63,653 nucleotides of DNA, filler included, from Folioceros fuciformis (GCA_049999805.1; 7 parts of 7 records of this genome joined end to end with filler, not necessarily neighbours in it), one strand, 5' to 3'. Counted from the whole stretch's first letter, positions 35,706 through 39,925 are shown. The notes: generated by a model from the letters alone, not told the origin. Made by a program: numbers and translations.

Positions 35706-38700
35706 TTACACTCGCCAACCAGGTATGTGTAGACCATCGAGTGGTTCAGACCAGTGTAGCTTTCTAGTCAGTGTGGTGCGGACCTCGGGACACTGCACGT
35801 TCTTCATTTTGGTCACATCGTGCGTCACTCTTGTTAGAATGCTCGCCACATCTTCGGTACGAGAGTGGTCAATGATGGCTCTCATGAAAGCTACGATGAA
35901 GTTTGTGCCTTCCTCAACATCTCTGAAGGATAAGTCTCCAGGATTGGTAGAGAAGGCGATGAGAAAATCTTTCGCCTGGTGCAAGGGTCGAATTCTTTTG
36001 CTGAGACCCTGGCTTCCCTGCACGTTTGACCCCTCGGCTTTGCTGGTAGTGGAAGAGTCGGCGAGGCACGACCCCTGTGCTTTCATGTTTCGACAAGACG
36101 GCCAGTGCCTCGACAAGCATTTATGACAACCACCTTCGGCTTGTCTGCCAAATACTCGCATTCGGCGATGGGCTTCAAAATATCTTCTTCAACATAAAGC
36201 TTCTCCACCTCCCCTGCTTCACCTGAGCAAACATACTCTCTTCCGTCTTCATCAGTTCCACCATGGGCGTTCACGCAAAACAGAAAGCAGTCGTCTTCTG
36301 CTAGGCGAGGGACCCTGAGAATGGCTTTCAACCTTGATTTCACCACGATGGCGTTCACCACGATATCTGTATCAAAATTCAACATCTCGAAGAGTGCTTC
36401 AAGTCGCCCTCTGTCTACCTGTCCTCCATGTCTGTGGTCTTCCATGCTGACTATCATTGCAAGACCTCTCCGGTGACCTGCTTTAACCCTTTCGTTAGGG
36501 TATGATAGTTCCTTCCCTGACTTGCGTAGACGCGGTACCTGTAGCTGACTTGTTCCAGCTGAAGGGCCCCTCGTTGCGTCGAGGGATGGACGGGGCCCCA
36601 AAGCAGACTGCACCTCTTCGCTACTTAACAGATCCCTGGCTTTCTCGTATACAAGGGATAGACCAGCTTCAGGCATTTCTGGCCAGCACCATTGATAATC
36701 GGACGATTTCGAGCCGGAGGAAGCCTGTACTGGATGCCTTTTATGATGATCTAAAAGAAACTTCATCAAATGCTGGTTGAGAACCGATTGACTGTGCCGG
36801 TGAATACAGAGTGTGAGCTTCTCCACACACTCAGTCCTGATGATCCCTTCTACTAGTTCAACTCCAGGACTACCTTCAGGAGAGGCACAAAATGCTCTCA
36901 GTTCCGCAACAATGCTCTGCTGGAGAAACTGGATCGTTTCGTCTTTGCTCTTGAGTGACCTCATCAAAATGTCGACACGATCCCCAATGTCCCCGGTCTC
37001 GTCCCGAATATCCCCGCTGCTCTCCAAAAACACGTCCATACCATCGTAGTTAAATCTGATCAAGTTACGCGCAATACTGTACTGATGAGACTGCATACCG
37101 CAGAGCCCATCCAACAAGATCTGTCGTAACTTGACCTGCAATGCACAACCGTTGGCGATAGTCAGGAAACCCAAGAGAGGATAAATCACTATCGACAGAT
37201 CTACAGAGAAAGTTCACAGGTAACGTACTTGGAATCTTGGAAAGAAGCCTGGACCGAGAAACGTCTTGGTTTCATCTCGGCATTGTAGCCGCCTGCCCAC
37301 GCAGTTGTACTGGCCCGCCATTTGCCAGTCCCAGTGCAGCTGTCGTTCCCCACGAAGAGCTTTACCTTCGGCGTCATCCAAGGTGAAGGGAACGAAGAAT
37401 CCAGGCCTTGGATTCGCATCATCTCGATAGCACAAGTTCAGTCTCATCATCAATGATACCAAATCTTCAACACGAATCCTGTCGGCCGCGTGCGTGTCCT
37501 TGAGGATCCGGGCTAAGGTGTCGTTGAGGAGGTCTTCAGCAATAAATCCACGGTCTCGCGATCTCCCCAAGGAAGGCTGTCCGGCTAGGCGCTCAGTGAG
37601 ATAGCCCAGGAACGAATGGCTGATCCAGTGTGGATTTACCACTACAGCATCTGCATCTTGGAACCAGATGACCCGGCCTGCATTGTGCAGATAGGCAAGA
37701 ATTGCTTGAAGGCGTTGCTCATCATCTTCCTCAAAAACCTTTTTGCATCTCTCCGTGGTCACCAGAGGCCGAGCTGGATTTTGAGATACCCAGTGTGTCA
37801 AAGCAGAGCTCAATCGATTGCACACCTTCGGTACCCAAAACAGAGGAAGCGCAAATAGCTCTTGAAATGATTGGAATAGCTGCTCCAGCAAAGGCTGCAC
37901 AATCTGTTTAGATCGAGCATCCATGAAGAAAGGCGTTGTCCTGATAAGGAGTACCTCCCCGAAAGTCTTGGCCACCTCTTCCACGGCTGGTTGCAGCAGA
38001 CCAACCAGATATTTGAAATCCAAATCCTCCATCCGATCCTTATGAGTGACAACCACAAATACCCGAGGCAAACAGGAACCCACGTTGCGAGAATTGGAGT
38101 GGATGAATCTAAGCCAAAACTTGAAGCCGTTCCTGAACTTGTCCAGCAGCATTTCATCGGACGGAAGGGGGTCGCCAGGCTTGTGGGCATCAAGTGGGTT
38201 GAATGTGAACAGGAAGACACATGTCTGGTTGAAGCTGGGGAACAAGTAGTCTTGCAGAGCTCGGTAGTGAGCTTGTCCAGCCAGATCCCAAATGGTAACT
38301 TCCATCTCGTCGTCGTTCCGCAGCACCTCGATTTCTATGCCTTCCGTTCTGGGGACTATTCCCACCTGGTTGGATGATGCGGCTCCTGTGAGTGGAACAT
38401 TACCGAACCAGGAACGATTCCAAGCTGGAGACAGTTGTTCCCACAATTGGACTTGGATGGCTGATGTAGCTCCTGTACAATGTGATGTGTGTGGTTGCGA
38501 TGCGCGCCATGCGGTGATCATGGTGTTTCGGAGAGTGGTCTTCCCCGCGTAAGGTGCACCGCACAGGAAAAGGCGGCCGACCCTGGGCTTCACAGCCTCT
38601 TGCCCCTCCAAAAGCAAAGGCCAGTAAGCCCTGTGACTAACATTGCGTGCCAACGTCGCGTTGATGATGGCCTGCTTACCCTCGATACCCCAGTTCGTGT

Positions 38701-39925
38701 AGCCTATGTGGATCTCCTGTAAAGTGGTGTTGACTTGGAGGCAATGCATCAACTCTCTGAACAACTCATCGTCGAGTTCCCGGCAAGCCAGAAGGCAGAG
38801 CTCATTCAAAGATGTATTTTTCTGCAAAGACTGCACAACCGCTTTGATGAAAGAGGGTCCGCTTGTCCCCACCAAAGTCAAGATGCGTAATGATTTGCAT
38901 TCCAGAAACGACATCGAAAATTCACTAAACGACTCGTCACCGTAATAGTCGGACAACTTAAGTGTGGAGAGGGTGGAGTTGTGGCGCCAGGCGTCCAGGC
39001 CGAACTCGACAACAAAACAGCTGATGCTAAGCTCCGTGATACAATCGTTGGTGCGCAACATTCCGGCCAGCGCGTCCGCCAGGCCTGGCTCCTCTCTGTT
39101 CCGGATATGCAACGTCAGCTTGGTGACCCCAGATATGGGGGCATCAGGCTGGGCTTGAGCACGGGTGAAAGCCAGTTTCAACACAATGCTCATGGGCCCC
39201 AGGCTACCCTGTACGGAACCCCTAACTGCATCATACGGATTTTCATCATTCAAAGAAAGCTCCCGGAGCGAGGCACAGAACGGAAGAGCGTTTGCAATAC
39301 ACTGGGCTCCCTCCTCATTCATGGCGATATCACCCAGATCCAGGACATCGAGAAGGGGAGCGGTTGCCAGCATGCGAGCCAGGTGCTGTGCCCCTTCACC
39401 ATCTCCCACAATGTTCCCGCTTATGTCCAAATCCTCCAGGACAGAATCCTGGTTGAAGCCATCGACCAGGGCACCAAGTCCAGCGGCATCAAGCCCAATC
39501 ACGCTTGTCTTCAGCCGTCGCAAGCTGCGACTGGAAGCAATAAGCTGGCCCAGGGCCTTGCAACCTGCCAGCCTTCCAAAACCTTCGCAATGATCCAGAT
39601 CAAGAACTTCCAGGGAAGGGTTGGATGCCAGGCACTCCAACAGAACCGCGCATTCATCTTCCCGACCGATGCCGATCCCCCAATTCCAACGGATGCGCAG
39701 GTCGCGGCGGAGACTGCGGCACTGGCCAACAGCTGTCAATACCCGCTTGCGCACTCGCCAGTGCCTGTCATCCGTGCTCGTTGAAGCTCCCTCACTGAAG
39801 AAATCGCCGTACTCCTCTCCGCCCAAATCGGGGAGTTGGGTCAAGGCGTGCACTTCCAGATCTGCCAGCAGCTGTTGCAACTTTTCCGGCAACTCCCGCC
39901 TGTCATAGTCCTCCTGCTCCGCCAT
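35706..39925 (-). CDS. TORNADO1-like Roco protein (LRR-ROC-COR) fused to a C-terminal caspase (peptidase C14A-type) domain; exons 39925-37229 and 37135-35706 with a 1-nt frameshift at ~36088; about 1375 aa if corrected
   Basis: RI-type LRRs (LEVLDLDHC, LEDLDISGN, LRELSLN); ROC G1 GAPYAGKTT, G2 RTEGIEI, G3 WDLAGQ, G4 THKD; TRN1-like COR (RRLQC...FLGPGFFPRFQ|VKL, GIIRTECV, DYQWCW); 93-nt GTACGT..TTGCAG phase-0 intron at 37136-37228; caspase motifs RRGLAMIV, RHGGQVDRGRLEALFEMLNF, DCFLFCVNAHG, LADKPKVVVINACRG, DFLIAFSTNPGDLSFRD..GTNFI, QCPEVRTTLTRKL. Confidence 0.9.

Follow-up and report, generated by a model that had tools for sequence, protein, structure and literature searches.

Can a plant encode, within a single polypeptide chain, a ligand sensor, a Ras-like GTPase switch and a caspase? 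This question is raised by a gene in a 63,653-nt stretch of DNA (filler included) from Folioceros fuciformis (GCA_049999805.1), which comprises 7 parts of 7 records and is hereafter called the window. The gene lies on the minus strand at 39925..35706 and encodes a member of the Roco family, in which a region of leucine-rich repeats (LRRs), a Roc GTPase and a COR domain are followed by a protease of the caspase type. Caspases have been stated to be restricted to animals, and plants to possess metacaspases only (PMC10896300, PMC5756287). We put it at slightly better than even that the gene belongs to a multicopy family of a bryophyte-like plant, in which a TORNADO1-type Roco with an animal-type caspase after COR-B serves as a sensor-switch-protease receptor, even though the caspase of the copy in the window is interrupted.

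Gene structure and domain organization

The reading frame starts with the ATG at 39925-39923 and the final TAA is located at 35708-35706, in agreement with the coordinates and strand given in a preliminary description of this locus. Exon 1 (37229..39925; this and all further features of the gene are on the minus strand) provides 899 open codons counted from the ATG, which comprise the LRR region, Roc, COR-A and the start of COR-B, and it terminates in a motif typical of the family, FFPRFQ. Just 3' of this motif there is a phase 0 intron of 93 nt (37136..37228, GT..AG) with an in-frame TGA inside. Exon 2 begins at 37135 and is open for 350 codons, and the 1249 open codons over the two exons are well beyond chance. 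Exactly the 93 nt are skipped by two contigs in run X1 (flanks of 28 and 21 letters; the run is classified as RNA only by the guess of the tool) and by none in runs X2 and X3. The spacing between FFPRFQ and FCAS is 81 amino acids (aa) in the spliced and 112 in the unspliced version, compared to 71-80 in nine relatives, and the gene of a homolog, P0168, has its intron at the same site. Hence, the proposal of a 93-nt intron inside COR is borne out by the sequence itself, the X1 joints, the motif spacing and the intron site of P0168. A second intron, of 149 nt (35513..35661, GT..AG), in the 3' untranslated region, is suggested by one X1 contig that joins 35512 to 35662 (CT..AC on the plus strand), a weak joint with a flank of 27 letters and no counterpart in X2 and X3.

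Exon 2 starts with a COR-B-like region (36610..37135) that displays the family motif FCASPEG..PGVELV..IIRTECV. It continues with a linker of low complexity (36470..36609) that separates COR-B from the caspase, is gapped and poorly conserved in the alignments and contains no domain detected by Pfam. The linker leads to the caspase large subunit (p20; 36086..36469), which is matched by Pfam Peptidase_C14 (E-value 1.1e-9, profile positions 1-130) and shares both the exon and the frame with COR-B. The caspase linker and the small subunit (p10; 35709..36080) follow in a shifted frame of 124 codons (Peptidase_C14, E 1.2e-14, profile positions 126-232). The order LRR, Roc, COR, caspase, as originally described, is thus supported by Pfam, motifs and frames; the statement that the caspase shares the exon and frame of the COR domain is right for the large subunit, but the small subunit occupies another frame.

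The core of the Roc GTPase (38036..38560) had been described as complete, and indeed all four motifs are present: G1 GAPYAGKT (38537-38560, aa 456), G2 PRTEGIE (38333-38353, aa 525), G3 DLAGQ (38273-38287, aa 547) and G4 THKD (38036-38047, aa 627). Their characteristic residues are invariant in two alignments of the family (A1 and A2), and the Pfam Roc model matches above its threshold (E 9.4e-7, 29.5 bits versus a cut-off of 27). COR-A (37388..37762, aa 724-848 of the 905-aa frame) is matched by the corresponding Pfam model with E 1.5e-8 and 35.1 bits. A profile built from the window Roc-COR and 16 relatives (A2) aligns over both Roc and COR with structurally characterized proteins, namely LRRK2 (residues 1346-1677, E 9.9e-15), the Roco of Methanosarcina (4WNR, 1.5e-13) and the Roco of Chlorobium (3DPU, 1.8e-10), while the single window sequence retrieves from the PDB just 3DPU, with E 0.077.

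The N-terminal region (38609..39925, aa 1-439) appears to be built of 27-29-residue units that resemble ribonuclease-inhibitor LRRs, the type also reported for TORNADO1 (TRN1) (PMC4104024), with L..L.L units at aa 105, 163, 192, 220, 319, 346 and 373. It matches LRR_6-rich proteins (P0001, E 9.2e-10; P0002, E 3e-4), and the nearest relative, P0154, contains a significant LRR_6; a word-based protein search with exon 1 returned just two weak LRR matches. The assignment of ribonuclease-inhibitor-type LRRs in the preliminary description is supported by the repeat period and by homology to LRR_6 proteins, but not by a significant Pfam LRR match. Likewise, the domain check recommended there, which we ran with Pfam, recovers Roc, Peptidase_C14 and, just under the cut-off, COR-A, but no LRR at significance.

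An intact homolog with the same junction

The cluster of a Roc-COR match, P0031, includes two further proteins from a public run assembly, P0168 (1485 aa) and P0167 (446 aa). P0168 has the same domain order as the window gene, with Roc, COR-A and a complete Peptidase_C14 (E 2.3e-25, profile positions 1-233 of 233). It corresponds to aa 1-1041 of P0031 joined to aa 2-446 of P0167, with identity over 1041 and 445 residues, respectively. Because P0031 enters non-coding sequence right after FFPRLQ, whereas P0168 continues from there into P0167, P0168 is the product of splicing, and its gene has an intron at the site of that in the window gene. Exon 2 of the window is colinear with P0167 over COR-B, linker and p20 (34% identity, E 1e-39), and the identity between the window gene and its caspase-bearing homolog is 33-37%. 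Since two genes that are only about 35% identical retain the same junction, selection has apparently maintained the fusion.

The C-terminal part of P0168 (aa 1215-1485), modeled in two copies, scored 0.56 compared to 0.01 for the best control, with an interface at residues 1468-1478, where the last beta-strand pairs with itself; in the dimer runs, contact agreement was at least 47% and the predicted local distance difference test (pLDDT) value of the partner at least 69. Among proteins solved as pairs of one chain, 21 of 30 from microbes and 17 of 29 from eukaryotes attained the mark used for dimers, compared to 0 of 23 and 0 of 30, respectively, of those solved as single chains. This pass indicates likeness to solved caspase dimers and may stem from the method having learned these structures, and it concerns the homolog only, not the broken copy in the window. 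An AlphaFold2 model of P0167, calculated from a two-row alignment, had a mean pLDDT of 37.4.

Relationship to TORNADO1 and diversity of the added domains

A full HMMER scan with Roc-COR against 1.84 billion representatives yielded 253 proteins at E<=1e-3, with a protein from Riccia sorocarpa at the top (E 6.7e-83, 36% identity). Among 30 clusters looked up, 20 bear an organism name, and all 20 of these are from streptophytes: Riccia, Marchantia and Calypogeia (liverworts), Nothoceros (hornwort), Ceratodon (moss), Adiantum (fern), Chara and Ipomoea. The kinship with TORNADO1 postulated earlier is confirmed both by these names and by the match to the Ipomoea 'protein TORNADO 1' (P0062; E 4.9e-32, 34% identity with the window Roc-COR). 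In a FastTree phylogeny of 111 rows and an IQ-TREE phylogeny of 47 rows, the window sequence forms a long branch next to the Marchantia/Riccia expansion. The COR-B-like region aligns with Riccia P0003 (E 1e-17) and is matched by 70 of the 153 stored relatives. Judging from these comparisons, the Roc-COR module belongs to the streptophyte TORNADO1 family, with liverwort and hornwort proteins as its closest relatives. Because of the streptophyte relatives, the position in the trees and the matches of the family profile to other Rocos, the gene is best regarded as a TORNADO1-family Roco of a bryophyte-like plant and not as a contaminant.

The C-terminus differs from the TRN1 type, which has no further enzyme domain, in that Peptidase_C14 follows COR-B. 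Pfam analysis of 33 long relatives detected an alpha/beta-hydrolase domain in three, NB-ARC in one and Peptidase_C14 in none (these are counts and not positions), and no caspase was seen in 150 representatives. The zero counts (0/33 and 0/150) are to be read as lower bounds, as they cover cluster representatives only and many gene calls from run assemblies break off at the intron that follows FFPRFQ. With Peptidase_C14 after COR-B and none among the 33 long relatives, the window gene is a divergent paralog and not the ortholog of TRN1. The idea that TRN1-like proteins of early plant lineages carry swapped C-terminal effectors gains support from the alpha/beta-hydrolase (3/33) and NB-ARC (1/33) additions, for one of which the position is known: in Riccia P0003, Abhydrolase_6 (aa 1341-1410) lies C-terminal to Roc (574-656). 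Thus, by sequence comparison, the streptophyte Roco family has expanded in bryophytes and includes members with different enzymatic additions, at least two of which carry a protease of the caspase type. Liverworts themselves (Riccia sorocarpa P0003 and P0004; alignment A1) possess a large TORNADO1-like Roco family with differing added domains, either of the alpha/beta-hydrolase or lipase-like kind or NB-ARC. Some of its members reach great lengths (2397 and 3382 aa) and apparently contain two Roc-COR units, and our literature searches found no paper that describes this family with its varied additions.

The protease domain and the frame break

The preliminary description had recognized a caspase domain, and the PDB matches bear out that it is truly of the caspase (MEROPS C14A) and not of the metacaspase type. 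The best matches of p20 are caspase-6, -8 and -2, those of p10 the small subunits of caspase-3, -6 and -7, and that of P0167 is caspase-8 (E 9.4e-15). Among the PDB matches listed, caspases account for 58 of 60 with p20, 60 of 60 with p10 and 60 of 60 with P0167. The nearest Atlas clusters of the protease are animal Peptidase_C14 proteins (arthropod and chordate caspases), none of the bacterial models of NCBIfam matched the caspase parts, and neither a p10 scan of the prokaryote genome collection nor scans of metagenomes found a relative (a close one in the former case). The protease thus appears to be closer to the animal caspases-8, -6 and -7 than to metacaspases, paracaspases or orthocaspases. 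In a word-based protein search with p20 among cluster representatives, not one of the 303 candidates reached E<=0.01, because P0167 and P0168 are hidden behind the representative P0031, which lacks the caspase part.

The catalytic His and Cys of the window gene, in NAHGG (36257-36271) and NACRG (36107-36121) of p20, align with the caspase motifs, and the corresponding motifs of P0168 are NGHGG and NTCRG. According to the PDB alignments, the Arg of HRHGG (36422-36436, p20) and the Arg of LSFRD (35919-35933, p10) are aligned with Arg residues of caspases, which we take to be those of the P1-Asp pocket (Arg, Gln, Arg). The p10 part also contains the motifs DFLIAFST (35946-35969) and GTNFI.

The view of the gene as an intact fusion must be abandoned for the copy in the window: at the break (36083..36094), the TGA at 36085-36083 ends the exon 2 frame a few codons past the Cys, after NACRG...GRLVET, and the product of the copy as assembled would be truncated just past the Cys motif. 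Some contigs of paralogs have one extra base after 36087 or 36091, which restores the frame. The region is read without interruption both in a neighboring open reading frame (33156..33671) and in P0168, which has a linker of similar length. Because these two read through and the contigs of paralogs carry the extra base, the window copy lacks one base relative to them at about 36087-36091. We also considered a short intron as the cause of the frame change and listed all frame-restoring GT..AG pairs 20-131 nt apart, but rejected it, as the neighboring copy and P0168 read straight through and no contig joint was reported at this place. With 1249 other codons open, the window copy must be a pseudogene of very recent origin, unless the assembly has introduced an indel.

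Copy number and genomic neighborhood

A 5-kb stretch is matched by 398, 614 and 517 contigs (90-100% identity) from three runs of two studies, and up to 12 variant contigs occur at single sites, so that the source organism must possess at least about ten close paralogs. The repeat unit extends past the gene, with 30 of 30 bins of 35300-40300 covered in the three runs.

The gene's contig (33048..44970, 11.9 kb) is unplaced. At its end, 2.5 kb downstream of the gene, there is a decayed second caspase copy on the minus strand (33048..33830), identified by tblastn, blastn, a three-frame view and the repeat families D3, D4 and D7-D9. It consists of p20 pieces in two frames with stops, including an extra piece at 33048-33119, and of the above-mentioned frame of 172 codons (33156..33671), which spans the Cys motif through p10 (Peptidase_C14, E 3.4e-13). 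About 2 kb upstream of the gene, on the plus strand, lies a decayed PIF/Harbinger transposase (41825-42756; DDE_Tnp_4, E 7e-4 and 1.3e-4 in two frames), inside which a 60-nt unit is repeated approximately five times (41874-42233), duplicating the GAIDGSHIKL motif. Apart from these DDE_Tnp_4 pieces, no Pfam family passed the thresholds applied to the other open reading frames on the contig. The stretch at 40001-40366, which starts 76 nt upstream of the ATG, consists of 63- and 70-nt tandem repeats, and the interval that separates the gene from the caspase debris contains a 34-nt tandem repeat (34142-34244, three copies with 88% matches).

Elsewhere in the window there are six identical linkers, each composed of 44 N + TTAATTAATTAA + 44 N, at 16391-16490, 23710-23809, 32948-33047, 44971-45070, 53352-53451 and 61631-61730. 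The window looks like seven separate contigs joined via a spacer with stops in all frames, and because this joining is artificial, genes on the opposite sides of a linker are not true neighbors. The window also contains Ty1/copia elements, of which the one at 6410-10726 (minus strand), with Retrotran_gag_2, gag_pre-integrs, rve and RVT_2 in an open gag-pol frame of 1439 codons, is apparently intact. Further copia elements with Gag and reverse transcriptase frames are found at 27230-32929 (plus strand), where direct repeats resembling long terminal repeats (27230-27383 and 32775-32929) are 94-98% identical, at 49314-52951 (plus strand) and at 62253-63485 (minus strand). No tRNA and no Rfam family was detected in the window.

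Proposed function and alternative explanations

A function as sensor-switch-protease and a role in immunity or cell death are proposed here by analogy. COR domains mediate the dimerization of Roco proteins, and initiator caspases become active when they are brought close together; it is because of these two precedents that we take the family to be sensor-switch-protease receptors. The protein would act as an intracellular sensor, kept off by its LRRs until a ligand or a change in a guarded host component is perceived. The nucleotide cycle of Roc-COR would then alter the oligomeric state, which would join two caspase domains through their last beta-strands in the manner of initiator caspases. 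The protease switched on in this way would probably cut after acidic residues and lead to local cell death or signaling. A bolder version, which we regard as rather doubtful, is that some bryophytes possess true caspases as built-in executioners of fast-expanding single-chain Roco receptors, where sensing by the LRRs and the switching of Roc-COR bring about activation by proximity, i.e. a 'Roco-some' that needs neither a STAND ATPase nor adaptors to fulfil the role of an apoptosome or inflammasome.

Several observations weigh against the interpretation of the family as receptors. The caspase of the window copy is frameshifted between the large and the small subunit, and a share of the depth of paralog contigs at the break site shows no listed insertion, because of which other copies may also be broken. 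The copy shares its 11.9-kb contig with caspase debris and the remains of a Harbinger transposase, surroundings in which decaying repeats are typically found. The ratio of nonsynonymous to synonymous substitutions (dN/dS) between the two caspase copies of the window, one of which is a pseudogene, is uninformative at 0.63 over 85 codons, and so is a dN/dS of 4.5 over 25 codons, which rests on one synonymous change. The joints that skip the 93-nt intron in X1 have sides of fewer than 31 letters, COR-A scores 0.2 bit below its cut-off of 35.3, and Pfam LRR_6 is not significant over the N-terminal ~440 residues (E 1.5). The Gln of QACRG is replaced by Asn in both caspase-bearing genes, which makes the cleavage specificity uncertain. 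Moreover, the Roc-COR tree does not place these two genes as sisters (p 0.035 in the approximately unbiased test against their grouping, the group having been named post hoc), so that the fusion may be either old, with later swaps, or the result of domain shuffling. Finally, angiosperm TORNADO1 is known from leaf patterning and not from immunity (PMC4104024).

The alternative that fares best, although we regard it as unlikely, is that the LRR-Roc-COR-caspase copies of this genome are pseudogenes without a present function, spread by segmental duplication or together with transposons. The frameshift, the adjoining caspase fragments with several stops and frameshifts, the short unplaced contig, the Harbinger relic and the many near-identical copies with a repeat unit reaching beyond the gene are all in line with such a fate. 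However, the window copy has only one lesion in addition to its 1249 open codons in two exons, keeps every G motif as well as the catalytic dyad of His and Cys, and has paralogs in which the frame is restored in some contigs; the intact, spliced homolog with the same junction at 33-37% identity calls for long-term selection on the fusion.

Somewhat less likely still is a developmental or trafficking Roco akin to angiosperm TORNADO1, whose caspase would process a signaling substrate with no link to pathogens or death. The membership of Roc-COR in the TORNADO1 family and the role of TORNADO1 in leaf patterning fit this scenario, whereas the high copy number and fast divergence do not, and neither do the alpha/beta-hydrolase and NB-ARC additions in the relatives, given that hydrolases are also found in atypical bryophyte nucleotide-binding LRR receptors (NLRs) (PMC11218826) and that the bacterial counterparts have been interpreted as conflict systems (PMC8195603).

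We consider it improbable that the caspase domain, similar to an integrated decoy, serves as a bait or scaffold without catalytic activity and not as the executing enzyme. Integrated domains are common in plant NLRs, and the Asn in place of the Gln of QACRG in both genes would agree with such a role, but the His/Cys dyad and both Arg residues aligned with the P1 pocket are retained in two genes that are ~35% identical.

A contaminant contig or a misjoin of COR and caspase, for which one might invoke the short, unplaced contig and the animal-like caspase, is very improbable in view of the streptophyte-type Roc-COR, which groups with the TORNADO1 family, of the p10 scan, which found no close relative in prokaryote genomes, and of a junction that is embedded with COR-B and p20 in one 350-codon exon, recurs in P0168 from another assembly and is bridged (36431-36703) by contigs that another study contributed in two additional runs, so that two of the outcomes named in the preliminary description as fatal to the fusion, foreign origin and misassembly, find no support.

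Novelty and significance

The architecture had been presented as possibly new. Literature searches found no Roco-caspase from plants or other eukaryotes and no caspase domain from bryophytes, with the reservation that supplements, which could list eukaryotic examples, lay outside their coverage; in a paper on the Marchantia pangenome, the terms TORNADO, Roc, COR domain, caspase and GTPase have 0 occurrences. The claim of newness therefore stands for plants within the literature searched, but not for the architecture as such, since the LRR-Roc-COR-caspase design has previously been catalogued in bacteria (PMC8195603). Another generalization needs to be revised: a 2014 review states that among photosynthetic eukaryotes ROCO genes occur in flowering plants only (PMC4104024), which is contradicted by the Roc-COR matches from Chara, liverworts, moss and fern.

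If the family is active, it would constitute a plant counterpart of the bacterial Roco conflict systems and a natural fusion of sensor, switch and caspase. It would then be relevant to how caspases arose and to the old puzzle of the caspase-like activities of dying plant cells, and research on LRRK2 would gain a Roco for which simple proteolysis serves as the readout of activation. Hence, we rate the potential interest of this family for plant cell death and Roco biology as high, tempered by the broken state of the copy at hand.

Comparison with known systems

Among eukaryotic Roco proteins, the LRR-ROCO proteins of brown algae, candidate pathogen receptors (PMC11378527, PMC3341825), offer a general likeness, and the searched text of the former paper contains 0 uses of 'caspase'. 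The placozoan ROC-COR proteins with CARD or TIR (Civiero et al. 2014, PMC4104024) resemble the present gene in linking a Roco to modules of immunity or death, but CARD merely recruits a caspase. The atypical NLRs of bryophytes (Chia et al. 2024, PMC11218826) also combine unusual enzymatic domains with receptors built of LRRs and a nucleotide switch, and the alpha/beta-hydrolase is common to them and to relatives of our Roco. However, they carry alpha/beta-hydrolase or kinase at the N-terminus and rely on an NB-ARC STAND ATPase, in contrast to the Roc-COR switch and the C-terminal effector found here, and in that paper 'caspase' occurs just within 'caspase recruitment domains (CARD)'.

With the animal caspases (-8, -6, -7, -2, -1 and -9 being the best PDB matches), the protease has in common its catalytic His and Cys, a large subunit that is followed by a linker and then a small subunit and, in the model of P0168, a dimer along the last strand. 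In the platforms of animal initiator caspases, i.e. the death-inducing signaling complex, the apoptosome and the inflammasome, CARD or DED adaptors link the caspase to a sensor that is a protein of its own, either a STAND ATPase or a death receptor, whereas here the sensor, the Ras-like GTPase switch and the protease are in one chain, and the Pfam scan of the window gene revealed no death-fold prodomain.

TORNADO1 of Arabidopsis and other angiosperms (TRN1/LOP1) has LRR, Roc and COR in common with the window gene, together with the FFPRFQ and FCAS motifs. To our knowledge, TRN1 contains no protease; the window gene has a caspase after COR and is placed in the bryophyte expansion and not in the angiosperm clade.

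The closest parallel in architecture is offered by the bacterial LRR-AP-GTPase(Roc)-COR-effector proteins catalogued by Kaur et al. 2021 (Kaur, Iyer, Burroughs, Aravind, eLife; PMC8195603), where the caspase is one of at least 24 C-terminal effectors. They too are composed of fast-evolving N-terminal LRRs, Roc, COR and a variable C-terminal effector, and one genome may carry many paralogs with different effectors. Nonetheless, those counter-invader proteins are prokaryotic and known from a computational catalogue, while the present gene comes from a land plant and has spliceosomal introns; its Roc-COR is apparently of TORNADO1 descent and not a recent bacterial import, and its protease is nearest to the caspases of animals.

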